This document shows, in pieces, positions 4,764 through 64,000 of a DNA stretch of 64,000 nucleotides (positions are counted from its first letter, which is position 1; each line of letters opens with the position of its first letter). Origin of the DNA: a virus; UHGV virus genome UHGV-1332848. One strand, written 5' to 3'. The notes under the pieces were generated by a model. That model ran no database searches and was not told the DNA's origin. It was given only the letters and a program-made list of their open reading frames with translations. Made by a program: the position numbers and the translations under genes.

Positions 4764-7700
4764 TTAAAAACCAACAAACATCTTTGAAAATACTGTTAAT
4801 TGTAATCTTCCTAATGTAGAGCTTGTTATTTTAATTTTATTAGCTTTTCCTATTGTTAAATAATTCTTTATATCAATAGTTATATCAGAATTTATTCCAC
4901 TTCTAACCAATACATCATTTACATAAAGAGAACAATTTGAAGGTTTCGAACCCAGATATATACCCTGAACCAAAGTGTGATTATGTGTTGTGTCTATTGT
5001 TAATGAGTGCCTGTGATCTGGGATAACCACACTATGTTCATGTAGTGGGATTTCTATTTGGATGTCATGCCAGTGCTTTAGAGTTTCCCTAAATATGTAA
5101 TGATAATGCCTTCCATAATAGTCTAAATTCTCGCTTGGAGAATCTATTGCATATGGAGTAGTTGTTGCAATATCTCTATCTGAATTATATTGCAGGTTTT
5201 GCGTTGATCTAGTATCATAGTAATACCCCCCCGCACCACTTGTACCAGTATAACCACCTCCACTGGATGACGTTTGGCTGACAGAAGCCCCCCCGGAATT
5301 TAATGATTTCACTGTCGCTCTAAATTCTTTAAAAGCTAAAGATATTGTTGTTTTTCTAATTTCGTAAACTCCCTCATCCACTATATGCTCAAATTCTAAA
5401 GGATTACTTGAATCCAAATCATTTGAATATATATATTGGTTTGTTTGTATTATACCATTTTCATCCAAAACTACTGAACGTCCAGTCTTATCATATAAAG
5501 TTAACCCAGCTTTTCTATTGCCATTACCATCATCAAATAATCCTAATTTAACTCTAACTCTTTTAAATTCATCATATATAGTTAATCCATCACCAGTTAT
5601 CTCAAAAGCGCCCGTATCAGATGTAGCTATTAGTTTTTCCCCAAATATTATTTCGCCCCATAAATTTTCAGCGAAAATACCATCTGGACTAATAGCAGTC
5701 TTACTGCTTGCAAATCCATCTGTTGATATACATATAAGTCCACTTCCAATATATAAGCATTTATTCATATCACTTTGGTCATATAAATAAATTCCAGCTT
5801 CACTAATGTCTATAAAATTACTAATTCCGCGACCCCTGGCAATATATGCAGATAAATCCAAGCCATTCTTCAATACCTCACCAACAAAGTTATTACTTAA
5901 CATAGCATCATCTATTATTGGTCTTAAACTATTTAATAAATTATTTGATGAATTAGCTTTTTTCCCTAAATCTGCTAAACTTTTCGCAACATTATATCTA
6001 TGTGTTTTATTAGTAAAAATTAGATTGCTTATTGTATTTGTCTTAGGCTCATATTCATAACCAATAAACCTAACTATATCCTCACCTAACTCTTCCTTTA
6101 ATTCAGGTTCATCAAACTTAAATAGACTACCTAACTCCAATATGTAATTCCAGCCACGTTTATTTTGAATTACTTTACATAAATTAACACAATTAATATC
6201 AAAATCAAGTTGAGGTTTAATCATTTCCTCCAAAACCTTTTTAGAAGCATTTAATAATGAAAAACTATTACTATAATAATCATCTTCATATACCCCAAAT
6301 TGTTCTATATCATTTAATTCATCTAAATCATTATCAGTAAATATTTTACCCTGATTATCCACAACAACTTTTCTATCAATAGATGAGCTTATAGCCATTA
6401 ACTCATTATTTAAGTTTTCTATATTATGAGTATAGCTTAATCTTAAAGCTAAACATTGGTTCAATCTCGATTCTAGTCCATCAATTTCGCCCTTTATTCG
6501 AGCTTGGTTAGTTGTATCATTTTTAGACATATAATCTGCCAATATACTCTTTAAATCTTTTACCCTTAATTGTAGAGATTGCACTTCACTATCAATCCTT
6601 ACTTGCTTTTGTTTCTCTGTTATTACATTATTTTTTATTCCCAACCATTCCTGTTGTTTAGTGGTTAGTAGCGTTTCATATCTTTTTAAAGCTAACTGTA
6701 GTTCATCTGACATATTTCCAAGCCTTATATATTCACTATAATTTCTGACTATATCATCCCCATAAATATTTTCAGAAACAATGCTTAAACCATTTTTCCC
6801 CATAACTTTTAATCCAGTTACATAGTCACTATTTTCAGTAACATTAATATCTATAATTGCATTATCATAAGTTAATATATACGGCTTCTCTTCTCCTAGG
6901 TTATCTCTATGTACTACGCTTACTGTTTTATTATAACTATCAAATAAAAATACACTTTTAAAATTATCTTGTAAACTTCTTAACGCTTCATACCAATCCA
7001 TATCAAGATTTTCTATATTTATATATTTTACATTCTCAGTTTCTATAATATTACCCGTTTCCCAAGTCAGTCTTATGTTTTCACAACTAAAAGTTTTATT
7101 AATAATATTTGTAAAAACCGCTATTCTTTCAACTCTAGTATTATCTGTTAAGGTGAATACATATTTAATGCCATATCTATTACCTACATCACTATGATGA
7201 TAAGCTTGTACCTTCTTTATGTTAGTATATAATGCATCAGTTAAAGTATTATAAATAGTAGGAGTATCAATTAACAATTTACCATTATCATATGTCTTAA
7301 AATTACTATACTCAAAAGATATATATAAAGGTCTATTTTCATCTATTGTAGTCGTTATATCTTTCTCAAATAACAATTCACCTTCCGTAACATTAGTTGG
7401 CTTGTTATAATTCTTAAACAAATCTACATTAATCTTTTCAGTAGTAGACATTAGTTCGGTTCTTGATTTTGGATCTACATAATCTACGCCCCAACCAGTT
7501 TCTCTTGCAAATTTATCTAACACTCCCTCAGCTATATGCACATCGTCTTTTTTTAACTGGATAACCTTGCCTTCAAAGCTAGTCCTTTTTTTCTTTAATG
7601 TATATTCAAACGACATAGCCTTAAAGGTTTTAGAGCCATTGTTCTTACTTATACTTTTACTCGGTTGTATTAATACAAATCTTTCTTTCTTTTCAATACC

Positions 7701-8791: not shown

Positions 8792-11700
8792 TTATCTAGT
8801 ACCAGCTAATTCACCTATTTCTCTCATTGTTTCATATTTTGCCTCCTTAATCATCTTTTCCACTTTCGGCAATACATCTTCATTCATATTCCCTTTAACA
8901 ATTAATTTATATTCTAAGTTAATATCACCAATTTGTTGTTTAGAGTTTGCATTACTCATATTTCTATTTACATTTGAATTTAAATTCAAGTCAACCGTAC
9001 TAATGCCTTTCAACTCAGTTATGAATTTATCTAGGTTTCCTAGCCAATCATTTTGAATTATATCTCCAACATTTGTAAATGTAGATGTAATACTTTTGTT
9101 TGCATTACCTACGCTATCTAATACTGAGGATAAATCTCTAACACCATTCTGAACCATTTTAAGAATTTCTTCGTCTGTTAATTTACTATTAATTTCATCA
9201 ATTTTATTTTGAGCATTCTCTTCTATCCTTTCAAGTTCTTCATCGTATCTTTCATTAGCCTTATCTCTTTCATTATCTCTAATGAAGCTATTTATATCTT
9301 GCTGTGCCGATTCAATTTGCTTTTTAATATTAGCTATTAATTCCCCATCCGCCATTCTCATGGCATCTTGAAGTTGAGATTCTAGATCAATTAAACTATC
9401 TTGACGCTTCTTTAACTCGTCTCTATAATCATCTTCGTCCCATTCTTTATTTCTTAAATCTTTCCTTTTTTGAATAGCTTTTTTTAATGCATCAGTTTCT
9501 TTGTTAATGTTTTCTATATATGAATCTTTTTGCTTTTTAATTAACTCTACTATTTCTTTTTGTGTATCTATTGTAGTATTTTTTAAGTCTAATATAGCAT
9601 TGCTAACTTCTGGTATTTGATTAAGTAAAAGGTCATTATATCTTTCTAAACTTTCAGCAATAGCTTTGGCATTCTTTTGTGCATTTTCTCTGGCATCTCC
9701 GCTTAAACTATTAGCCCAGTTAGTAAGAGCGTCAAGCCTGCTATTAGCATTTGTTATCCTGCCACTACCATCAGCATTGAATCCATTGGCAACTAACGAA
9801 TTCTTTAATTCAGATAATTCCTTCTCTTGTTCTTTATTTTTATTTTTATATGCCATTTCTTGTTTTTTAATTAATTCTAATTCTTTCTCTAAGTATTTTA
9901 ATTTTTCTTCATCTGAAGTGTTTTCCATTAAAATTTTATTTCTATCTAATTCATTGTCTAATTCCTTTAATGCATTATTTACATCCCTATATCTATCAGA
10001 TAACTTCTCCATGTTGGCAATTTCTTTTTCAGCCTTATCTTTAGAACCCTTATCCCCTATTAATGAGCTTCCTCGTCCAAACGTTGGCGAAGAAGTGTTA
10101 AAACTGGCGTAAAATTCATTAAAAGCAGTATCTATTTTTGCCTTTTCAGTTTGTATAGTTTTTATTTGTTGTAGTGCTTTGGTTGCAAATTTTTCATTAT
10201 TAAGTGCATCTATAGACGTTGCAGATTCAACAGACTTTTCAGCAAAACTGTTTAACCTACTTTCAGCCTTACTTATCTGTTCGTCTAGTTTTGCAAGAAT
10301 TTTACTCTTCATTTCAGCCCAGCTACGTGCATTAGCTAAGTCATCTCTGTAAGTTTTCGCACTTCCCCCAAGTAAATTTGCTAGAAAATCAGATAAAGGT
10401 TCAGATAGTTTCGTAATAAACCCAGCTTTTGCTTCGTTTAAAGTAGCAAAATTATCTAAATCAAAATCATAACTTTCACTATTTACGTCCACAAATTGAC
10501 TAGCAAATTTATCAAATGCATTTTGAGCCTCAGAGCTATTTTTAATTTTTTCAGCATAGTATTTTTGATCATTACCTATCATTACTTGATATGCTTCTTG
10601 TTGTATTGCCACTTGATCTTGAATCTTGTTATTTAAATACTCTTGAACAGCGTTAATATCTGTAATATTCCCACCTAAATCAGAATAGTTTTTAGCAAGT
10701 TCAGCTACTATATCAGGTGTGAGTTGTTGCTCCTTATTTATCTTCTGTAGTAACGTGTCAAGTTTTTCCACTTCTTCAACTGCTTTACCATAGTTTTGAG
10801 TTGCTTGTTCTATTGATACTTCAGCAAATCCACCAACTTCGGCATCAACATTGTCTTGTTTTGCCTTAGTATTTTCTTTTGTTGCTTCTGTTGCTTTATT
10901 TACAGAATTTATATAATTATTAACAGCACTCGTGTCGAATCCCATTTGAGTTAATTGAGAAGATTTATATCCATTATCTAACAACCATTTTATATGAACT
11001 TGAGCTTGCGATGCTTTTAAGGTTGTATCCTGTATTTCCTGATTGAGCTTGTCTAAATCAGATTGTGTTACTTTTTGAGAATATGTACCAGTTGTAGTTT
11101 TACCTCTTTCAGTGTAAGATACCTGCTTTGTGTATTCTTCTCCTTTTATCATAGCAAGTTTCATTTCTTCATATTGCTTTTTCTTCTGTTCCAAAGCATT
11201 TAGTTCATTAGTCAATCCTCTGTTCGTTTCTATAAACCCTAAAGCTTCAATTTCCATTTGTTCTTTTTTTAATCTGATCTGTTCCTCAATTAACCCATTG
11301 TTTTGACTTATTGCATCTCCCTGTAAGCTAAAACCACTAGCTGACTCAGGGAGTACACTTGCCAGTTGTTTTTCTATCTCAACTAGTTGAGATTCCAAAT
11401 CTTTTCTTTGACTTAAATTTGAAGTATTTGTTATTTGTTGTTCTAGCTTTGTTTTTTCATCAAGTAATTTTTGTGCTTGGGTTATAGCTTTACCACTATC
11501 TGTAATAAAAGCAGTGGATTCAGCATTCATTTCTTTCATCTCTTCTTTTGTTACTATTAATTTGTCTATAAGTTTAGTTACGCCAGTTATTATTCCAGTT
11601 ATAGCAAAACTCAATCCTAAAGTCATAGTTGCTGTAGCCAAAGCAGATGCGACTTCAACAGCTTTAAAACTAACAGCTAACGCTGTATTTTTTGCACTTA

Positions 11701-40951: not shown

Positions 40952-41284
40952 GTGGAATATGGTTCTATGTTTAATAAGAATGACTACGTTATACTTGAAA
41001 TGTTAATTGCAGAAGAATGCAATTCGCCATACAAATCATTAACAAAACAATTCATAATAAAACAGTCTGGATTTTCACATGTTAAAGTACAACAAGTTTT
41101 AAAATCTTTTTTGCTTGTTGGATTTGTAAAAGAAGGTACAAAAGATGGTAATAACAAAACATATTATTATACCGACAAGGGGAAAGAACACTATATGCAG
41201 GTTTTTGAGTATTCAAATGAAGATATAGAGATTTTAGTAGAAAATAATAAAGAGAATGAAAATAATAATCAGGAGGAAAGTTAA
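40952..41284 (+). CDS. tubR: TubR-like winged-helix DNA-binding partition protein
   Basis: 110-aa wHTH protein immediately upstream of, and co-oriented with, the tubulin-like GTPase. GTG start with RBS GAGGTG. Confidence 0.5.
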   Translation: MEYGSMFNKNDYVILEMLIAEECNSPYKSLTKQFIIKQSGFSHVKVQQVLKSFLLVGFVKEGTKDGNNKTYYYTDKGKEHYMQVFEYSNEDIEILVENNKENENNNQEES

Positions 41285-42388
41285 ATGTTAAAAGATTCTT
41301 GTGTATTTATAGGTGTAGGACAATGTGGAGGAAATATAGTTAGACAATTAGAATTAAAAGGTGGGTATTCATGCTTTTATATTAACTCATCAACTGAAGA
41401 TTTAGAAACTATAGGTACTGATTATGATAAGCAACATCATATTTCAGAAACAAAAGGAATGGCTAAAGATCAAAAATTAGCTAAAGAAATAATAAACGCT
41501 GAAGAGAGAAATTATATAATTGCAGAAAAGATATATAAGAGATATGCCAATGCTACGATATATACATTTGTATTCTCAACATCTGGGGGAACAGGTGGTG
41601 GAATGTCAAGTTCTATAATGAAAGCTATGAAAGAATGGTATCCAGATAAAATAGTAAATGCCATTGCTGTTAAACCACATTCAAGCGAAGATATGATTAT
41701 GCAATATAATTCATTGGAATGTCTAAAGGAATTAAAAGAGTTAAATAAAGATAACGTAGTAACTAATTTACAAATTGTAGACAATAATAAAAGAGATTTT
41801 AAGGATAAAATGAGAATAAATTCAGAAGTTGCATCTTTATTAGACGGAATAATGGCTTTTAATTCAATAACATCAGAAGGAAATTTAGATGAACAAGAAT
41901 TAGAAGTAATATATTCAACAAAGGGCGTTTCTTTTATATGTGAGTTTGGTGGTACTGATTTTGTAAATGAATTAGATAAAGCAGAGCAAAAAATGGTATA
42001 TGCACAATATTTAAAAAATGGTACTGTGCATGGTCTTATTTTAAATAAAGATTGTAATACAGAAATAAATAGAGCTATAATAAAGGATGCATTTGGATAT
42101 CCTTTAAAAACAATGGATACTGTATGGGATGATGAAAGTAATATTGTTTTTGTAGCTGGAACTGAATTTAATGATGGAATCTTAGAAGAATTAAAAAAAT
42201 CATATATGGAGATTAAAAAGAAAAGAGAAGAAGTTAACGATAAAGCTAAAGAAAAGAGTGAATCTGATATAAGTATAGATTTTAGTGAATTAGAAACAGC
42301 TTCTACAGTGATAAATACAAAAGTTCAAAGACCAGATAGAAGACGTAGAGTAGGCGTAAATGGTGAAATGAGCAGATATAGAAAATAA
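41285..42388 (+). CDS. tubZ: TubZ tubulin/FtsZ-like GTPase (plasmid/phage partition)
   Basis: T1 loop GVGQCGGNI (compare tubulin GQCGNQ) and G-box STSGGTGGGMSS (tubulin signature GGGTGSG). T7-like VDNNKRD. Basic C-terminal tail. RBS AGGAGG. Confidence 0.8.
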   Translation: MLKDSCVFIGVGQCGGNIVRQLELKGGYSCFYINSSTEDLETIGTDYDKQHHISETKGMAKDQKLAKEIINAEERNYIIAEKIYKRYANATIYTFVFSTSGGTGGGMSSSIMKAMKEWYPDKIVNAIAVKPHSSEDMIMQYNSLECLKELKELNKDNVVTNLQIVDNNKRDFKDKMRINSEVASLLDGIMAFNSITSEGNLDEQELEVIYSTKGVSFICEFGGTDFVNELDKAEQKMVYAQYLKNGTVHGLILNKDCNTEINRAIIKDAFGYPLKTMDTVWDDESNIVFVAGTEFNDGILEELKKSYMEIKKKREEVNDKAKEKSESDISIDFSELETASTVINTKVQRPDRRRRVGVNGEMSRYRK

Positions 42389-43491: not shown

Positions 43492-45147
43492 ATGATTTTA
43501 GAAAGTTTATTATGTGGAACAACTGGTTATGCATTATATAGAATATTTGCATATGATAAACATGAGGAAAGAAGGCTTAAAAGTAAAGTGAAAAGAAACT
43601 GGAAAGTTTTAATGGATAGTATGGGAAACTCTGCTGAGAACAAGATACATCAAGAATATGAAATTTTAAATATATTCCCAAAGCATTACGGATTTGACAT
43701 GGTTGTATCTATTCCACCAGCAAAGAAATTCTCTGATGTAGTAGATTTATTGCCTCTAATAGAGCATTTTTACCGTGCTAATGTAATGCTGAATATGTCC
43801 GAAAATAAGAATGCTGCTTATGTAAGAGTACATTTTTCAAATTTTGAAATTTCCCCTAAAGACAAACTTAGATTTGATTGGTTTAAAACATTTTATAACA
43901 TGTCAGGCTGTATAACTAAGTCGGGTGAAACTTTGAATATAGATAAAATAAGTGAGATAAAATCACACGACAATGAATTAGTTGGCTATAAAATAATCTC
44001 TAAAATCCCACTAGGATTAAACTACGATAAAATAAAAGATTCTTATGATACTATAACTAAAACAATGGGAAAGTGTTTCTTTAATTTCAACTACAAGGAA
44101 ATGGTACTAGAAACATCTATAATTCATAAAAGGATTGAAGATAATGTTAAGTTTACGCCATATAAAGTTAAACCTTGGGAATTATATATATCTATGGGGT
44201 ATGACTGGAATCCTATTATACTAGATTATAGTATGGTTGCAAACTCATTAATAGGAGGTACTCAAGGTAGCGGTAAAACAAATGCTATATTTTCTGCTTT
44301 TATAAATCTTTGCAATCAATGCAATGGTGATTACTATGAAGATGGATTTGACTTAATGGTATCTAATCTAGGCGAAAAGAATGATCTTAGAGTTTTTAGA
44401 GATACAAAGCAATGTAAATACTATGCTAATAGTCAAGCTGAAGTATTATCTATGCTTAAGTATCTAAAAAAGGAAATGAATAGAAGGAATAAATTATTTG
44501 CTGAACAAGAATCATTTTGTTTCAATATTCACCAATACAATAAATTGATAAAGGACAAATCGAAGCAATTGAAAGTAATACACTTATTAGGTGATGAAAT
44601 AGCAGACTTAATGAGTGAAGATAAAGATGATGGTAAAAAAGAAATTCAGGATATGTTGTGGGATATTATCAGGAAGTCAAGAAGTAGCGGTATATATATT
44701 ACTGTTGCCACTCAACGTGGTAGTTTAGCAAATTTAAGTAGTGAAATTAAAGGACAACTAGCTAATAAGATATGCTTTAGTCAACCTAACACAGCATCCG
44801 CACTTACAATTATGTCTGGTGATGATGTAGCAAAACGTGTTATGTCTTTAGAAAAAAGCAGAGAATGTTTAGTTGATTATGCAGAAGGAATTAAAGTAGC
44901 TAAGACGCTATACCTAGATGAAAGAATGATGGAAAAGTTATTAAAGAATTCTATAACAAAAGAAAATAATAAATTAAATCTTAACCTAGATGGTGATATA
45001 GTCGTTTCAGAACTCCCAAAAACGATAGAAAACTCTGAAAATAATGATAAAAATACTAAAGAACATAAAGAAACTTCGAAAAAATCTAAAAAAAATAGAT
45101 TTACTAATCTTATTGAGAATAAAAGCAAAAAGGGTGAAGAAGAATAA
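43492..45147 (+). CDS. FtsK/SpoIIIE/TraB-family DNA translocase ATPase
   Basis: Walker A GGTQGSGKTNAI, Walker B VIHLLGDEIADL, and TVATQRGS (FtsK ATQRPS motif). N-terminal hydrophobic segment. Lys-rich C-terminus. Confidence 0.75.
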   Translation: MILESLLCGTTGYALYRIFAYDKHEERRLKSKVKRNWKVLMDSMGNSAENKIHQEYEILNIFPKHYGFDMVVSIPPAKKFSDVVDLLPLIEHFYRANVMLNMSENKNAAYVRVHFSNFEISPKDKLRFDWFKTFYNMSGCITKSGETLNIDKISEIKSHDNELVGYKIISKIPLGLNYDKIKDSYDTITKTMGKCFFNFNYKEMVLETSIIHKRIEDNVKFTPYKVKPWELYISMGYDWNPIILDYSMVANSLIGGTQGSGKTNAIFSAFINLCNQCNGDYYEDGFDLMVSNLGEKNDLRVFRDTKQCKYYANSQAEVLSMLKYLKKEMNRRNKLFAEQESFCFNIHQYNKLIKDKSKQLKVIHLLGDEIADLMSEDKDDGKKEIQDMLWDIIRKSRSSGIYITVATQRGSLANLSSEIKGQLANKICFSQPNTASALTIMSGDDVAKRVMSLEKSRECLVDYAEGIKVAKTLYLDERMMEKLLKNSITKENNKLNLNLDGDIVVSELPKTIENSENNDKNTKEHKETSKKSKKNRFTNLIENKSKKGEEE

Positions 45148-57764: not shown

Positions 57765-57856
57765 AAAAGTTTGAAATATAGGAAAATTTTAGTTGAAATA
57801 ATTAATTAAAAATAATATAATATAATTAAGATAAAAATTAATTGAAAGGAGTAATA

Positions 57857-58807
57857 ATGGATACTGAAATAAGAGATAGATTCTTGATGAAGTTTGATAA
57901 ACAGAATACCGTAAAAACCTATAAGGGTAATATAGATATCTTTTATGAATTTGTATTAGCTAGGAAAACTTTCGATACTGACAAAGATTTATTAGGTACT
58001 ATAGGGTTTAATGATGTTGAAGATTACTTTTATGACATGAAAAAAAATAATAAATACAAAAAAAGTACAATGAATTTAAAAATAGAAGTGTTGAATGAGT
58101 TCTTTGACTTTGCGATAAGAAGAAGAGTCATGGAATTCAATCTAACTGATACAATAGATAAATTTTGTAAAAGTGATATTAAAAAAGAAAAAAAAGAGAA
58201 GTATGTTCCCACTGTAGATGAAATAAAAATGATATTAAATGCGACATATGAAAAAAAAATAGATGCAAGATGTCAAAGTTTTAATAACGCTAGAAACAGG
58301 TTTTTAATATCTTTATTATGTACTACGGGTTTGAGGATAGAGGAAGCTTTGGGAATAAAAATGAATGATGTAGATCAACTGAGTAATGGTTTGTATATGA
58401 TTGACGTGGAAGGAATAAGGGTAAAAAATGGTATAAACAAAAGAGTCCCTATTACAAAAGGAGTATTGAAGTATTTCTATGAATATGAAAAAGAAAGAGA
58501 TTTAAGAAATAAAAAATTCGACACAGATTTATTATTTTTCAGTATTAATGGAAAGAAACTAACTGGAAACAAAACAAATGAGTTGATAAGAGAACTATGT
58601 GCAAGAGCAGGAATAGAAGAAAATATAACAAACCATTGTTTTAGACATTTTTTAACTACATACCTAAGAAGCAAAGGCTATGATAATGGTTTGGTGTATA
58701 AAATTATGGGTTGGAGTGAAAGAGGAATTGATACAGAATATGGCAAGGAAGCAAATAATAAGGAATATGACATATTAAAGTTAAAGATGTGCGATGTTTT
58801 GGGGTAG
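57857..58807 (+). CDS. tyrosine recombinase / integrase (XerC/D-like)
   Basis: TTGLRIEEALGIKMNDVD (catalytic Arg box), HCFRHFLTT (HxxR box), C-terminal LVYKIMGW (Tyr). N-terminal SAM-like domain. RBS AAAGGAG then ATG 57857. Confidence 0.8.
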   Translation: MDTEIRDRFLMKFDKQNTVKTYKGNIDIFYEFVLARKTFDTDKDLLGTIGFNDVEDYFYDMKKNNKYKKSTMNLKIEVLNEFFDFAIRRRVMEFNLTDTIDKFCKSDIKKEKKEKYVPTVDEIKMILNATYEKKIDARCQSFNNARNRFLISLLCTTGLRIEEALGIKMNDVDQLSNGLYMIDVEGIRVKNGINKRVPITKGVLKYFYEYEKERDLRNKKFDTDLLFFSINGKKLTGNKTNELIRELCARAGIEENITNHCFRHFLTTYLRSKGYDNGLVYKIMGWSERGIDTEYGKEANNKEYDILKLKMCDVLG

Positions 58808-59589: not shown

Positions 59590-59694
59590 ATAAATTGACG
59601 GTTTTTATTATTTAATTAATTATTTACTTTGCAAATACATACTAAATGTAGTATAATAATAATAAATTAATAAATTGAAAAGGAGTAATAACAA

Positions 59695-61077
59695 ATGTCA
59701 GAGATATCAACTTTACTTCCTATGAAAAAGCTAGATGAAGAATTAATTAAAATAATAAATAAAGAAGTTAATAACAAGGAATTAATAAAAAACATTAATG
59801 CTATTTTCGCTAAAAAGAATCTTACTTTAAAAACAGTTGCTTGTTTATTTAATGGTAGTAAATCAATTAGAGAGATAGACACTATGGAGAAAATAGCATT
59901 TACTTACGGATGTTATGAAACACTTAAAGTTAAAAGAAAAAATAATAAAAGTTTAAAGGATGAGTATATTTATAGAGAAGAATTAGATCCAGGTAATTAT
60001 TTTAGTGACCAAATATTAGTTAGATATGAAATATTCATGAGTGAATCTGATGTTGTGAATATTGTTGAATTCAAGAATTTTATTATGATTGATGACAATA
60101 ATAGTAGAGGTAATGTAAGCCTTTTAGATGTTTACAAGTATAGAAAAAATACATTGTGGTTATATAATAGGTCAACTCAAAGAGCACCAGAAATTGTTCC
60201 TATGGGTAATAGCGGGGAATATACGTATAGAAATAGCGTAGATGAAAAAGCGGTTAAAGAAATGACAGAAGCTATTTTAGATGGTAAATTTGAAGAAACA
60301 GAAGTGATTTTAAACGTTAGGCTTATTCCAGATAAAGAGCCTGATGTAAAGGTAGTTACTAAAGGGAAATCTGAAGGAATTGCAGACATTATTGTAACTC
60401 CTAATTATGATATAAATAGTGAGAATTACACTGTGGTTGAAATATTAGACGGATATCACAGAATATTAGCAATAGAGGAAGCTGTAAGGATTTACCATGA
60501 AAGAACTGGCGAATGGTTAAAGGGTTGCATTGGTGTTAAATTGGTTTTTGCAGATGAGAAAAGAGCTTTAAGAATTGTTAGACAAACATTTAAAAGAACT
60601 GCTACAGATGAGCAATATCTAAAATCTATAGAAGAAGATGATATTTCAATGTTTGTAGATAAGATTATAAATAAGAGTAGTATATTGAAATTAAACGTAG
60701 GTAATGTGTATGAAGAGTGTTTGGCTTTTGGGAAAATAACTTATAAGTCTTTATTAAATGATACAATTAGAAAATTAGGAATAGATGTAACAAAAAGATC
60801 TAGTGCAAATTTCACTTCTGATTTTTTAGCAAAAGGGATAGATGAAATTTACGAAATAATTAATGATATATATAAAGATGACAAGGATATTTTGTGCAAT
60901 CCAAATATAATTGCGGGTTATGTAAAAGCTATTTATGAAATGATAAATAAAGAATTGGATGCTGAAGATATTATAGTAAAAGCTCTAAAATTAAGCAAAA
61001 AAGACATTAGAGATATGAAATTAAATAGTAGAGATTGTATCTTAGATAAGATATTAGAATATTTTGAGGTTATTTAA
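59695..61077 (+). CDS. ParB/sulfiredoxin-superfamily protein with DGYHR motif (DGQHR/DndB-like)
   Basis: VVEILDGYHRILAIEEA matches the D-G-x-H-R ParB-like nuclease/DGQHR signature. Promoter TTTGCA-18-TATAAT and a motif copy lie upstream at about 59603-59660. Confidence 0.45.
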   Translation: MSEISTLLPMKKLDEELIKIINKEVNNKELIKNINAIFAKKNLTLKTVACLFNGSKSIREIDTMEKIAFTYGCYETLKVKRKNNKSLKDEYIYREELDPGNYFSDQILVRYEIFMSESDVVNIVEFKNFIMIDDNNSRGNVSLLDVYKYRKNTLWLYNRSTQRAPEIVPMGNSGEYTYRNSVDEKAVKEMTEAILDGKFEETEVILNVRLIPDKEPDVKVVTKGKSEGIADIIVTPNYDINSENYTVVEILDGYHRILAIEEAVRIYHERTGEWLKGCIGVKLVFADEKRALRIVRQTFKRTATDEQYLKSIEEDDISMFVDKIINKSSILKLNVGNVYEECLAFGKITYKSLLNDTIRKLGIDVTKRSSANFTSDFLAKGIDEIYEIINDIYKDDKDILCNPNIIAGYVKAIYEMINKELDAEDIIVKALKLSKKDIRDMKLNSRDCILDKILEYFEVI

Positions 61078-61089
61078 AAGGAGAAAAGT

Positions 61090-62241
61090 ATGTTTAGAGA
61101 ATTTTATTTTGGGAGAGCTTATGATTTTAAAACAGAAGAGGAAATGAATGAAATGTACTCTAAGTTAATGAGTGAGGCTAATCCTTATGAAATTAACAAA
61201 AATACATTTCTCAACGAATATTACAAGGATGATAGTATTGATACAAAGATAGTATTATATGCATTGTGGAAAGGTGCAATTCAATACATTGAAGAAATGA
61301 AAATGAAAGATTTATATCAGTTTTCACCTTCTGAGATATCTGATTTAATAATATCCACACCAACAACAAGTAGAGTTAGAAAAGAGTCTATATTTAACTT
61401 TATAAAGCAGTATTGTGATTGGGCATTCTCTAAGGAATTAATAAATGTAAATCCTACTGATGGATTAAACAGGGAGGAACTCGTTCAAGTAAATAAAAGA
61501 GCTATTAAAAGAAAAGTAATGGGATTGAGTGAGTTTTATAATTTATGTTATTCAATGTTAGAAAATACGAGTGTTTTTAATGTTTTGCCATTGGTTTTAG
61601 CTAGATATGGAATAACTGGTTCAGAATTAAGTTATATGTCAAATTTAAAATGGAACGACATAGATAGAGAAAACATGATTGTTAATATAGTAAAGCATGA
61701 AACAGGAGAGGTTATTACACAATTAAAAGTAGATAAAAATTTTATTAATTGGATAGATATTGCTAAAGATACTAATGATTATAAAGTTAAGACTAACAAA
61801 GAGAAAAGTGGCATTACTTCTTTTGAAACAGTTAGTAATGGTGGTTATATAGATAGAGGATATGTAAATAAAATTTCTATAAAAACTAGAGAAAGTGAAG
61901 ATGTTTTGAAGGTTGAAAAGTCTTCATTGTATAGTAGAATTAATTTGGCATTTAGAGACAACGAAATGAATGTAATTTCTCTTGGGAGTCTTGAAAAGAG
62001 TAGAAAGATAGAAGTTTTATTAGAAAAAAGAGAAAGTAGAAAGTTAACTACAAGAGACGTTCAAGAAGTAGTGCTAATGTTTAACCCTAATGCAAGTTTG
62101 GGAGCTTATAATTCTCTCAAGAATGATTATCAAAGTATAACTGGAGATACGGTTCTACCTGCTAGAGCTAAAACATATGAGTTAAAAGATGAAAATAGCG
62201 TAGAGTTTGTTAAAAATGTCAAAAAAGAATTGGGTTTATAG
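61090..62241 (+). CDS. hypothetical protein resembling a tyrosine-recombinase fold but lacking the R..HxxR..Y catalytic residues
   Basis: Core-binding-like ESIFNFIKQYCDWA..INVNPTDGL and LVLARYGITGSELSYMSNLKWNDIDREN resemble integrase boxes. No HxxRH or terminal Tyr motif is recognisable. Confidence 0.3.
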   Translation: MFREFYFGRAYDFKTEEEMNEMYSKLMSEANPYEINKNTFLNEYYKDDSIDTKIVLYALWKGAIQYIEEMKMKDLYQFSPSEISDLIISTPTTSRVRKESIFNFIKQYCDWAFSKELINVNPTDGLNREELVQVNKRAIKRKVMGLSEFYNLCYSMLENTSVFNVLPLVLARYGITGSELSYMSNLKWNDIDRENMIVNIVKHETGEVITQLKVDKNFINWIDIAKDTNDYKVKTNKEKSGITSFETVSNGGYIDRGYVNKISIKTRESEDVLKVEKSSLYSRINLAFRDNEMNVISLGSLEKSRKIEVLLEKRESRKLTTRDVQEVVLMFNPNASLGAYNSLKNDYQSITGDTVLPARAKTYELKDENSVEFVKNVKKELGL

Positions 62242-62281
62242 AGAGCATTATCTCTATAAACTCTTTCTTTAAAATAATTTT

Positions 62282-62330
62282 AATAATTAATTAAAAAGAT
62301 GTTGACAATAAAAGCCAGTAATGTTAATAT
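62282..62330 (+). promoter_or_regulatory. consensus sigma-A promoter preceded by AATAATTAATTAAAA motif
   Basis: Motif 62282-62296, TTGACA 62302-62307, 17-nt spacer, TGtTAATAT with -10 at 62325-62330. Confidence 0.6.
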
Positions 62331-62398
62331 ATTATTGAGGGTAGGAAAACATAAGACACCTACTAAGAAATAATAAATTAAAAGAGGTAAAGAGGAAT

Positions 62399-63001
62399 AT
62401 GATAACAAGACAATGTAAAAGAGCATGTATTCACTGGGTTGACTTTGGTGAGACCAAAGGTTCTGAACAAGGAGGAATTAGACCTGCGATAATTATTCAA
62501 AATGATATAGGGAATAAGTATAGTCCAACTGTAATTGTTTGTCCTATATCTTCAGAGATAAAAAAGAAAGAGTTACCAACTCATGTATATTTAGAGAATT
62601 GGAGAACTTATGGTTTAACTAAGCCATCACAAGTAATAACAGAACAAATTAGAACTAGAGATAAGGCACAACTTGGGGATTACATAGGATGCGTAGATGT
62701 GGACACAATGAATAAGATAGATAAGGCAATTGAAATAAGCGTTCAAGTTGGAAGTGCAAAAAACATAATAGAACCTAGAGAAGTAAGAGAGTCAAAAAGA
62801 AAAGCTCAAGAAATTAGAGAAATAGACAGTTTCTTAAGAATGTGGTTTTTAAAAAATGATGATATTAATAAAGTTCAGGAGTATATAAAAGACAGAGAAA
62901 TTATGATAAAGGATTTAGAGTTATATTCAACAAGATATAATTTAGATTATAGAGAATTTTATCAACCTATAAATGGGGTTAATTTAGGAATGGTGGGATA
63001 A
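62399..63001 (+). CDS. MazF/PemK-family endoribonuclease toxin with about 80-aa C-terminal extension
   Basis: IHWVDFGETKGSEQGGIRPAIIIQND...TVIVCPISS closely parallels E. coli MazF IWVDFDPTKGSEQAGHRPAVVLS...CVPCTT. It is about 200 aa versus about 110 typical. No antitoxin ORF lies upstream. Confidence 0.85.
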   Translation: MITRQCKRACIHWVDFGETKGSEQGGIRPAIIIQNDIGNKYSPTVIVCPISSEIKKKELPTHVYLENWRTYGLTKPSQVITEQIRTRDKAQLGDYIGCVDVDTMNKIDKAIEISVQVGSAKNIIEPREVRESKRKAQEIREIDSFLRMWFLKNDDINKVQEYIKDREIMIKDLELYSTRYNLDYREFYQPINGVNLGMVG

Positions 63002-63005
63002 TAAA

Positions 63006-63596
63006 ATGGTTATAAATGGGGCATGGAAAGAAAAAGTGAGAACAATGAGAGCTAATAAGAACAACGAGGGAGCAAAAAGAGAGTTGTTAAAAGCTAAAAT
63101 GACTGGTTATGAAAAGGCTGATTTAAAAAACAAGATATTCGTTGATTATTGTTTGGCACATCATGCGTATACAGAAAAGAATTTTGAACTGGCAAATAAA
63201 TATTTAATGTGTATAAAAAGTATTTTTGATGAAGATGTCAGAAATATTGAAGATATGAATTTAGAGTATTGTAATTATTTATGGCTAAAAGTAAATAATA
63301 ATTACAATAAAATGCAAATTGATGAAATAATTACAGATATGACTTTAGTTTATAATTATTATAAAAGTATGGAAGAGGAAGATAAGGCTTTAAGTGCATT
63401 AGAAAATATTTTTAGATTTAAAGGTGACCATGATAAGATACTAGAAAGTCTAGAAAGGCTTATGCAGTGCAAAGAAATATCAGATTGGAATTTTGTTAAA
63501 AGTATCTTGAATGACTGTGAAGAAGTTAGTCACAGTCTATACATAAAAGCGTTAGGCATAGTTGATAAATACAAAATTTATATAAATGTAGTTTAA
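63006..63596 (+). CDS. all-helical (TPR-like) protein translationally coupled to the MazF-like gene; candidate antitoxin/regulator
   Basis: Start 4 nt after the MazF stop with RBS GGTGGGA. Helical repeat character. No HTH recognised. Confidence 0.35.
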   Translation: MVINGAWKEKVRTMRANKNNEGAKRELLKAKMTGYEKADLKNKIFVDYCLAHHAYTEKNFELANKYLMCIKSIFDEDVRNIEDMNLEYCNYLWLKVNNNYNKMQIDEIITDMTLVYNYYKSMEEEDKALSALENIFRFKGDHDKILESLERLMQCKEISDWNFVKSILNDCEEVSHSLYIKALGIVDKYKIYINVV

Positions 63597-63640
63597 AAGA
63601 GTTTGAATTAGAAACCAATATCTTGAAAGGAGGTGAACAT

Positions 63641-63769
63641 ATGAAAAAAGGAATGAAAATTGCTTTGGTTATTGGAGTAGTGGCTTTAGTTTTAAGTTTG
63701 GGAGCGGTTGGATCTACAACAATTAGACCATTCGGAGATCCACCTTATGGTTTAATCAACCTAAAATAA
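63641..63769 (+). CDS. small secreted peptide precursor (42 aa; Sec signal peptide plus about 18-aa C-terminal region)
   Basis: Strong RBS AAAGGAGGTGA. MKKGMKIALVIGVVALVLSLGAVG signal, then STTIRPFGDPPYGLINLK. Architecture like Phr/AimP-type signalling peptides. Confidence 0.4.
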   Translation: MKKGMKIALVIGVVALVLSLGAVGSTTIRPFGDPPYGLINLK

Positions 63770-63867
63770 TTATTTAAAAACATAATATAAACGTATGATA
63801 AGATAGGCTGGATGATTTATATTGTCTAGCCTAAAATTATAATTAATTTAAAATAAGAGGGTGGGTT

Positions 63868-63993
63868 GTGGAGTTGGTCACAATATTAATACTATTAATT
63901 GGTTTATTGCTAACAATATTTTATAGTTTATTAAAGTCTGCAAGTGATGCAGATGATTACATAGAGAAATTTTTAAATGAGAAAGAGAATTAA
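63868..63993 (+). CDS. small hydrophobic peptide (41 aa, GTG start)
   Basis: RBS AAGAGGGTGGG. VELVTILILLIGLLLTIFYSLL TM segment, then an acidic tail. Confidence 0.3.
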   Translation: MELVTILILLIGLLLTIFYSLLKSASDADDYIEKFLNEKEN

Positions 63994-64000
63994 TACATAT

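Follow-up and report, generated by a model that had tools for sequence, protein, structure and literature searches.

We analyzed a 64,000-nt stretch of the virus genome UHGV-1332848 (hereafter the window) and found at its 3′ end an operon in which the gene for an extended MazF-type RNase is followed by the gene for a stand-alone tetratricopeptide repeat (TPR) protein and by a small gene with the build of a secreted propeptide. The order of the three genes is kept across diverged relatives, and parts of them have been exchanged as two nested recombination cassettes, the outer comprising the MazF tail and the TPR gene and the inner the TPR C-terminal half together with the peptide. Our preferred reading of these sequence patterns, to which we give slightly less than an even chance, is that the TPR protein acts like an antitoxin by binding the MazF tail and is itself modulated by the re-imported peptide; the module would then be a direct analogue of the arbitrium-AimX-MazF axis of phage phi3T. 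The window belongs to a large SPbeta/c-st-like Clostridium phage, probably a phage-plasmid, and the three genes are followed by a fourth small open reading frame (ORF). For comparison, genomic surroundings were retrieved for 12 diverged lineages, ten of which form a main clade and two of which (L024 and L025) form a remote branch.

An extended MazF is coupled to a stand-alone TPR protein

By its defining sequence features, the product of the first gene is MazF. Its match to PF02452 scored 105.8 bits against a curated cut-off of 23.1, and its nearest solved relatives were the Bacillus subtilis EndoA/MazF structures 4mdx (E = 9.5e-29) and 1ne8 (about 1e-28), with the nuclease domain ~50% identical to EndoA. 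Residues R28, S51, S22-E23-Q24, S77 and E82-Q83 align with EndoA R25, T48, S19-E20-Q21, S73 and E78-Q79; we take R25 and T48 to be the catalytic residues and the others to be the RNA-contact residues of the EndoA-RNA structure. The aligned positions are mostly invariant in an alignment of 34 members of the extended family, the S51 position being S or T, and the nuclease is active-looking in sequence.

Residues 115-200 form an 86-aa C-terminal extension, with conservation across about 50 protein clusters. Both this extension and the MazF/PemK domain had been recognized in an initial annotation of the DNA, made from the sequence alone. The AlphaFold2 (AF2) model of the protein (predicted local distance difference test, pLDDT, 81; predicted template modelling score, pTM, 0.53) resolves the extension into a low-confidence linker at residues ~119-126, a helical hairpin of ~55 aa with helices at 127-152 and 160-179, and a disordered tail that terminates in a conserved RMVG motif. 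A comparison of the tail with MazE, made with approximate query sequences and of low sensitivity, revealed no similarity.

The initial annotation had called the toxin an orphan lacking an upstream MazE/PemI-type antitoxin. The second half of this statement held: the 157 nt (62242-62398) between the stop of the MrpR-like gene (62241) and the MazF start contain a terminator and a promoter and no plus-strand ORF, and a tblastn search of the 64-kb window with approximate query sequences, again of low sensitivity, yielded no MazE/PemI. The label "orphan" is itself arguable, as the TPR gene is a constant partner of the toxin gene.

That partner encodes the 196-aa all-helical protein which had been described as starting 4 nt after the toxin stop, and the AF2 model, built with 19 homologs (pLDDT 85, pTM 0.77), bears this out with 11 helices. 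The model has a TPR fold with four repeats; a hidden Markov model (HMM) search returned only a sub-threshold TPR_7 match (E = 0.0065). The structural similarity to TPR/RRNPP proteins that had been suggested was therefore found at the level of the fold, and a specific RRNPP relationship was not demonstrated. No family in Pfam, phrog, PADLOC or NCBIfam matched the TPR protein above threshold, and neither the extended MazF nor the TPR protein matched a PADLOC defence model. Pfam, NCBIfam and the AF2 model showed no DNA-binding or other effector domain in the TPR protein, and no helix-turn-helix (HTH), ribbon-helix-helix (RHH) or AbrB match. An "asparagine ladder" (N64, N99, N134) was considered as a peptide-binding signature and discarded, since their positions on the helices of the AF2 model are not equivalent.

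When 1.84 billion representative proteins were searched with a profile, only 37 relatives of the TPR protein emerged. All of them are 209 aa or shorter and none is fused to a DNA-binding domain, indicating that the family is always stand-alone. These representatives came from metagenomes only; no homologs were found in IMG/VR or GTDB genomes by protein search or in INPHARED or PLSDB by tblastn, and a scan of JGI metagenomes gave two fragments only. Wherever family members occurred in the loci examined, they stood beside an extended MazF and nowhere else. The TPR start lies 2-6 nt past the MazF stop in 10 of 11 loci, and the Shine-Dalgarno sequence of the TPR gene is embedded in the conserved last MazF codons, those of the RMVG motif, an arrangement by which the TPR gene is translationally coupled to the MazF gene.

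A small gene encodes a putative secreted propeptide

The third gene follows the TPR gene on the same strand after a 44-nt spacer and begins behind a strong Shine-Dalgarno sequence, GAAAGGAGGTGA. Its 42-aa product was initially taken to have the architecture of a Phr/AimP-type signalling peptide, and its signal-like n- and h-regions and strong Shine-Dalgarno sequence agree with a propeptide of the RRNPP type. The n-region carries a charge of +3 and precedes a hydrophobic h-region, so that by build the ORF is a predicted Sec-type propeptide. In nine of the ten main-clade lineages, an ORF of 40-43 aa lies ~45 nt after the TPR gene behind GAAAGGAGGTGA. The predicted signal recurs across lineages with an n-region of +3 or +4, a 15-mer hydropathy of 2.3-3.1 and small residues at -1 and -3, and in one lineage it includes the lipobox LVSC.

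The part predicted to be exported comprises ~17 residues with an invariant DPP[Y/F] core and variable flanks. Examples are IRPFGDPPYGLINLK, IRPFGDPPFLFMNI, ILVDPPYGLINLK, KIDPPYGSTGTV and LIDPPFSH; the L013-type peptide is GVQILVDPPYGLINLK. The propeptides end in ...INLK, ...FMNI or ...STGTV. Moderately diverged pairs gave a pN/pS of 0.3-0.5 for the propeptide ORF.

A P-x4-N-L pattern is common to the disordered MazF tail (62960-62998) and the exported peptide (63731-63766), for example ...YQPINGVNL... and ...YNPMIYGNL... in the tail and ...DPPYGLINL... and ...DPPFLFMNL... in the peptide. It is present in only about half of the lineages. If this likeness is not due to chance, the peptide might compete with the MazF tail for a groove in the TPR protein.

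Two nested cassettes link MazF tail, TPR protein and peptide

Pairwise comparison of the window with its relatives revealed two regions of exchange. Against L013, DNA identity was 95-100% outside positions 63,280-63,800 and 66-76% inside them. This variable region is made up of exactly the TPR C-terminal half and the propeptide gene, whereas the membrane-peptide gene that follows, outside the cassette, is 95-99% identical. A sharply bounded cassette of half a receptor and the neighbouring propeptide is a pattern known from pherotype systems, and the pattern seen here is that expected of a co-diversifying receptor and ligand. The connection between the small ORF and the helical protein that had been suspected at the outset is supported in this respect, as the 42-aa ORF covaries with the TPR C-terminal half as a swappable cassette.

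Against L007, the DNA is 92-100% identical from 58,800 to ~62,790 (MazF codon ~134) and 53-69% identical from the first tail codons through the TPR and peptide genes. At the protein level, the nuclease domain is 100% identical, the tail 39% and the TPR N-terminal half 38%. The break falls at the junction of nuclease and tail and not at a gene border, an argument for grouping the tail with the TPR protein by function.

We then compared pairwise similarities among 9-10 lineages by Mantel tests. The MazF tail correlated with the TPR N-terminal half (r = 0.70, p = 1e-4) and far less with its own nuclease domain (r = 0.25, p = 0.06). Likewise, the mature peptide correlated with the TPR C-terminal half (r = 0.77, p = 1e-4) and far less with the N-terminal half (r = 0.29, p = 0.06).

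The MazF-TPR pair is conserved beyond the propeptide

We examined how far the gene set is conserved. Extended MazF, TPR protein and a small downstream ORF keep their order in every main-clade locus retrieved, with TPR identity down to 43%, and in every locus of sufficient length the order is integrase-like gene, small ORF, YopQ-like gene, MrpR-like gene, extended MazF and TPR protein. A four-gene set had been envisaged initially. Its first three members are constant in the main clade, the third bearing a signal sequence in nine of the ten lineages, whereas the fourth ORF is inconstant. The remote branch keeps the extended MazF/TPR pair at a MazF identity of 39-47%, with a distant TPR homolog of 200-209 aa (L025 1110-1712).

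The fourth ORF, a membrane peptide of 41 aa, is real, and its protein is conserved in 7 of the 12 lineages; it does not stand directly after the peptide gene in L005-7, L010, L022, L024 or L025 and is no constant member of the set. In L005-L007, a 363-aa gene with faint zinc-ribbon matches (8860-9951) lies directly after the propeptide gene, replacing the membrane-peptide ORF.

Among deposited phages, only c-st, a plasmid-prophage of Clostridium botulinum, matched the extended MazF over its full length, and homology of the c-st protein extends through the tail (hhalign 99%). Its MazF partner, CST028, is a downstream-encoded protein of 218 aa, and the module lies upstream of YopQ/YopR homologs (L001 4884-6413). 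CST028 was considered as a TPR homolog and rejected at an hhalign probability of 0.1%.

Proposed mechanism and alternative explanations

In the mechanism that we propose, the operon, which immediately follows the YopP/YopQ/MrpR-like repressor operon, would be transcribed from a promoter of its own. The RNase would be restrained by the TPR protein, whose N-terminal half would bind the hairpin or tail of MazF, giving an antitoxin in reversed gene order. The propeptide would be exported and processed, would accumulate with the density of phage or lysogens and would be re-imported. The peptide would then bind a groove of the TPR C-terminal half and alter the hold of the TPR protein on MazF. Following the analogy of phage phi3T, peptide binding would free MazF, and RNA cleavage would bias the cell to lysogeny or dormancy; this direction of the switch is a guess drawn from that analogy. 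The readout is likewise a guess and may be lysis-lysogeny control, plasmid addiction or the exclusion of other phages. A bolder version appears to us possible but rather doubtful: an effector-less minimal TPR receptor would itself be the antitoxin that grips the added tail of MazF, a secreted, strain-specific peptide would toggle that grip, and the RNase would be set without a transcription factor, deciding lysogeny or plasmid maintenance in Clostridium phage-plasmids akin to c-st, the phage of botulinum toxin.

Several observations weigh against a peptide-controlled TPR antitoxin. At 196 aa, the TPR protein is below every validated RRNPP receptor (285-473 aa), and searches of Pfam, NCBIfam, PDB profiles and the 1.84-billion-protein profile set showed no sequence relationship to any RRNPP family. 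The remote branch is without a secreted propeptide: L024 has a 14-aa hydrophobic ORF, MLALALAVAITLWI (7288-7332), and L025 nothing obvious. c-st has the extended MazF, no propeptide and an unrelated partner. Within the main clade, L010 has a 23-aa ORF, MAKKEKDDKKRPIGVRPPHGNKK (6625-6696), after the TPR gene, with a strong Shine-Dalgarno sequence and no signal sequence; its core, RPIGVRPPHG, is related to IRPFGDPPYG, and the ORF may encode a "private" form of the peptide that is not secreted. The tails of L005 and L020 are 99% identical and their TPR N-terminal halves 55%. AF2 placed no docking of the tail on the nuclease domain (pTM 0.53). UACAU (TACAT), the cleavage site assumed here for this MazF, shows no depletion in the repressor or MazF operon, with ~7 sites in 4.4 kb versus ~1.9 per kb in the window; depletion is the expectation if MazF spares these operons, as in phi3T. 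Finally, the Mantel values are supportive and not decisive because adjacent DNA is expected to correlate through linkage.

Some of these points suit a plain type II toxin-antitoxin pair in reversed order, in which the extended MazF is the toxin, the TPR protein a labile antitoxin, and the peptide no TPR ligand but possibly a co-transcribed surface or membrane factor. Such a pair could serve plasmid-prophage addiction or phage exclusion. MazF and TPR genes are tightly coupled and conserved to remote relatives without a secreted peptide, the TubZ-like partition gene and the kinship to c-st describe a setting in which addiction modules are common, and c-st-type plasmids pair the extended MazF with another partner, as in mix-and-match evolution of toxin-antitoxin systems. 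This explanation nevertheless leaves the exchange of the peptide gene and TPR C-terminal half as one sharp-bordered cassette unaccounted for. It also fits poorly with the correlation between these two parts (r = 0.77), with a peptide gene that in 9 of 10 main-clade lineages comes directly after the TPR gene and has a conserved, strong Shine-Dalgarno sequence in front of it, and with a TPR protein that has no DNA-binding domain of the kind typical of type II antitoxins. We regard it as unlikely. The same verdict applies to an autonomous Rap-Phr-like TPR/peptide pair directed at another target, such as the MrpR-like or YopQ-like repressors or a host regulator, with the extended MazF independent and controlled by its own tail or by a host MazE. 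Synteny and fold are RRNPP-like, Rap proteins also have no DNA-binding domain and act by protein binding, the pair lies beside lysogeny repressor genes, the MazF tail could be an autoinhibitory or dimerisation element, and L005 and L020 combine an identical tail with TPR N-terminal halves that are 55% identical. Against an independent MazF stand the translational coupling, with the TPR Shine-Dalgarno sequence within the last MazF codons, the recombination break at the nuclease/tail junction and not at a gene border, the far better correlation of the tail with the TPR N-terminal half than with its own nuclease domain, and the occurrence of TPR family members in the examined loci solely beside an extended MazF.

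That the genes have no functional link at all, in which case the small ORFs would be incidental peptides, secreted or of the membrane, and the helical protein a scaffold with an unrelated role, we consider very improbable. It would agree with the fact that no protein but MazF matches a known family and that the fourth ORF is dispensable in several lineages. Against it stand the order and spacing of the genes, which about 12 diverged lineages have kept, as well as their coupling, the cassettes and the purifying selection that acts on the peptide ORF.

Relationship to known systems

We compared the module with described peptide-signalling and MazF systems. In phage phi3T, arbitrium acts through the host MazF (PMC10769878). 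During lytic growth, the host MazF is inhibited by AimX and YosL; high AimP removes AimX. At high peptide levels MazF is free and lysogeny is favoured, and MazE is bound by a product of the sro operon (PMC10769878; bioRxiv 10.1101/2025.11.27.690993). The module described here similarly places a predicted secreted peptide and a candidate TPR receptor beside sro-type repressor genes, with MazF as the output that we propose. The differences concern each component. MazF is phage-encoded and carries a tail here, whereas the MazF of phi3T is a host gene with a normal MazE. AimR is ~380 aa long, has an HTH and acts on aimX transcription, whereas the candidate receptor here has 196 aa and no HTH. In phi3T it is AimX, and not the receptor, that binds MazF, and no aimX-like step is apparent here. 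Moreover, the module lies downstream of the repressor genes, whereas the arbitrium genes of SPbeta and phi3T lie on the other side of the operon. The coupling of peptide signalling to MazF, put forward initially as novel, thus has a precedent in phi3T (PMC10769878), and it is the proposed wiring that is new.

No similarity to AimR or AimP was detected in Pfam, the 1.84-billion-protein profile search or PDB profile searches. AimP ends in a hexapeptide of the form xxxxG[G/A]. By its receptor and peptide features, the module is not arbitrium, though it lies beside the same kind of repressor operon.

The module shares more of its layout with Rap-Phr pairs, including the Phi105 Rap (8rte): a TPR protein without a DNA-binding domain, a propeptide gene immediately downstream and co-directional with a predicted Sec signal, and pherotype-like diversification. 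Rap proteins act by binding protein partners, as we propose for the TPR protein. Unlike the latter, Rap proteins have ~350-380 aa and contact Spo0F or ComA through an N-terminal three-helix bundle, whereas the partner proposed here is an RNase toxin; the TPR protein had no Rap match in Pfam or NCBIfam. The proposed module would resemble Rap-Phr logic, in which the receptor acts by protein binding, fused to a toxin-antitoxin pair.

A small Sec-type propeptide adjoining a TPR protein is also the signature of PlcR-PapR and other RRNPP systems, and no effector domain of the kind found in RRNPP receptors, whether an HTH or the Rap N-terminal bundle, is present on the TPR protein. RRNPP_detector searches for receptors of 250-500 aa and propeptides of 10-100 aa, with validated receptors of 285-473 aa (PMC10075063). 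Three of its five features were found here, namely a small propeptide (40-43 aa in nine lineages), adjacency and a TPR fold by structure. Receptor length falls outside its range, both for the 196-aa protein and for all 37 representatives, which are 209 aa or shorter. Since the TPR protein lies outside 250-500 aa and its TPR_7 match is sub-threshold, RRNPP searches would miss the family.

With B. subtilis MazEF (EndoAI/EndoA), the module shares the conserved nuclease residues and a coupled two-gene arrangement with a putative neutralising partner. It is not a canonical MazEF pair: unlike type II MazEF, it has no MazE/PemI, a reversed gene order, a TPR partner and the 86-aa toxin extension. The CST027/CST028 module of c-st and those of group III plasmids of ~200 kb also have an extended MazF near YopQ/YopR homologs in a plasmid-prophage; they differ in that CST028 is unrelated to the TPR family, there is no propeptide, and the module lies upstream of YopQ/YopR. 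Extracellular death factor (EDF) peptides (NNWNN in E. coli, RGQQNE in B. subtilis) are extracellular and reported to modulate MazF by direct binding; unlike the propeptide described here, EDF is not encoded with the toxin and involves no TPR receptor. Full-text literature searches returned no account of a TPR protein as the partner of a MazF, nor of the TPR family.

If the proposed mechanism is true, MazF control would be a recurrent output of phage peptide communication that reaches beyond Bacillus SPbeta phages to clostridial phage-plasmids, and a peptide receptor could act post-translationally as an antitoxin. It would also define a class of receptors of about 200 aa, consisting of TPR only, that the length and HMM cut-offs for RRNPP proteins exclude, and the naturally swapped cassettes would be ready-made specificity variants. 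How the maintenance of such elements is controlled is of practical interest, since plasmid-prophages with botulinum neurotoxin C/D genes are among the relatives of this one.

Transcription signals and features of the operon

We searched the region for signals that delimit the operon (Table 1). A terminator-like hairpin closes the repressor operon; in related loci, a hairpin of other sequence occupies the same place. The promoter that follows confirms the strong promoter annotated directly before the toxin gene, and its -35 box and -10 region are kept in most of 10 related loci aligned; L015, which has an IS605 insertion in the promoter region, gave no alignment there. The promoter had also been described as motif-associated, and this part did not hold: a repeated motif at its flanks was rejected, as repeats of the flanking sequence within the window are no commoner than chance.

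The leader between promoter and MazF start can fold into a stem-loop in which three pairs are maintained by two-sided changes in 7 loci, and which could stabilise the mRNA or have a regulatory function. Together with a hairpin after the peptide gene, the terminator, promoter and leader bracket genes 1-3, so that these seem to form a single transcription unit. The spacer that separates TPR and peptide genes contains a conserved intergenic motif, GAGTTTGAATTAGAAACCAA, which is retained even within the otherwise diverged cassette. We considered it as an RNA hairpin or a repeated operator, and it is neither, being unstructured (z = 0.44) and single-copy in the window.

The gap between the MrpR-like and MazF genes carries insertions in some relatives. 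IS605-family OrfB/TnpB (Cas12f-like) genes are inserted there in L005 (6639-7112) and L015 (3431-5204), in the latter alongside a resolvase-type gene, and the region seems to be an insertion hot spot.

Table 1 Features of the MazF-TPR-peptide operon and of the repressor genes upstream, with positions in the window
Feature	Position	Strand	Evidence or description
Tyrosine-recombinase-like gene, YopP/SroD-like; first large gene of SPbeta-type repressor module	57842..58807	+	Pfam Phage_integrase 5.4e-24
YopQ/SroE-like protein, 460 aa	59695..61077	+	phrog_5732 3.6e-29; BLASTP 3e-9 to c-st CST029 (annotated YopQ homolog)
MrpR/YopR/SroF-like master-repressor homolog, 383 aa	61090..62241	+	Pfam MrpR_N_CB 2.2e-9
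Terminator-like hairpin closing the repressor operon	62232..62263	+	13-bp stem, then T-run
Promoter of the MazF-TPR-peptide operon, TTGACA-17-TG-TAATAT	62302..62330	+	10/12 consensus matches, TG extension
5′ leader stem-loop of the MazF operon	62331..62374	+	Minimum free energy -8.5 kcal/mol, z = -3.4
Extended MazF, 200 aa	62399..63001	+	Pfam PemK 1.8e-30, residues 7-114
MazF nuclease domain, residues 7-114	62417-62740	+	Pfam PemK/MazF (PF02452)
MazF-tail helical hairpin, residues 127-179	62777-62935	+	AF2 model
Stand-alone TPR protein, 196 aa; proposed MazF-tail binder and peptide receptor	63006..63596	+	ATG 4 nt past MazF stop
Variable "specificity cassette", TPR C-terminal half and propeptide gene	63280..63800	+	Window vs L013
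Conserved intergenic motif GAGTTTGAATTAGAAACCAA between TPR and peptide genes	63599..63618	+	Kept in 8/10 loci
Propeptide, 42 aa (predicted)	63641..63769	+	n-region MKKGMK, 18-residue h-region, cleavage motif AVG|S, exported part STTIRPFGDPPYGLINLK
13-bp hairpin after the peptide gene, probable operon end	63804..63833	+	z = -2.9 for region
Single-pass membrane peptide, 41 aa, GTG start	63868..63993	+	Protein-level conservation (K.AS.AD...EK.L)

The operon adjoins a repressor module of SPbeta type in a candidate phage-plasmid

In SPbeta-family phages, MrpR/YopR/SroF is the master repressor (PMC10516654), and it is contained in the sro operon, yopMNOPQR (PMC10769878). The genes upstream of the MazF operon resemble this module. 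For the 383-aa MrpR-like protein, the domain MrpR_C_cat is recorded for an identical protein, SPbeta MrpR (8a0a) is the sole sequence match in the PDB, and BLASTP gave 8e-11 to c-st CST030, which is annotated as YopR-like. The recombinase-like gene holds an unchanged position in all related loci, and in each locus examined the MazF operon comes immediately after the MrpR-like gene.

This position speaks for lysis-versus-lysogeny control no less than for abortive infection or plasmid addiction, the roles considered by the initial annotation, in which the YopP/YopQ/MrpR-like module was absent. Because of this adjacency and the phi3T precedent, we take lysis-versus-lysogeny control as the leading candidate role, with plasmid-prophage addiction or phage exclusion as possible alternatives.

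The window carries tailed-phage genes for a tape measure protein, a portal and a terminase. Its 41285-42388 segment encodes a TubZ-like tubulin/FtsZ-family protein of 367 aa (PF00091 1e-15; Tubulin_2 1.7e-5). Nine C. botulinum plasmids in PLSDB, two of them of ~200 kb, also encode an extended MazF (the hits include H33 and H34). The phage-plasmid nature supposed at the outset is plausible because of the TubZ-like gene, the relationship to the plasmid-prophage c-st and these plasmids. A megablast search with 59600-64000 returned no close DNA relatives among INPHARED phages or PLSDB plasmids. The TubZ-like gene is preceded by a 110-aa ORF, and the two (40952-42388, plus strand) resemble the TubR-TubZ plasmid-partition pair known from c-st, which supports a plasmid-prophage lifestyle. 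A gene for an FtsK/SpoIIIE-like protein (43492-45147, plus strand; phrog_1358 4.8e-41) adjoins this region.

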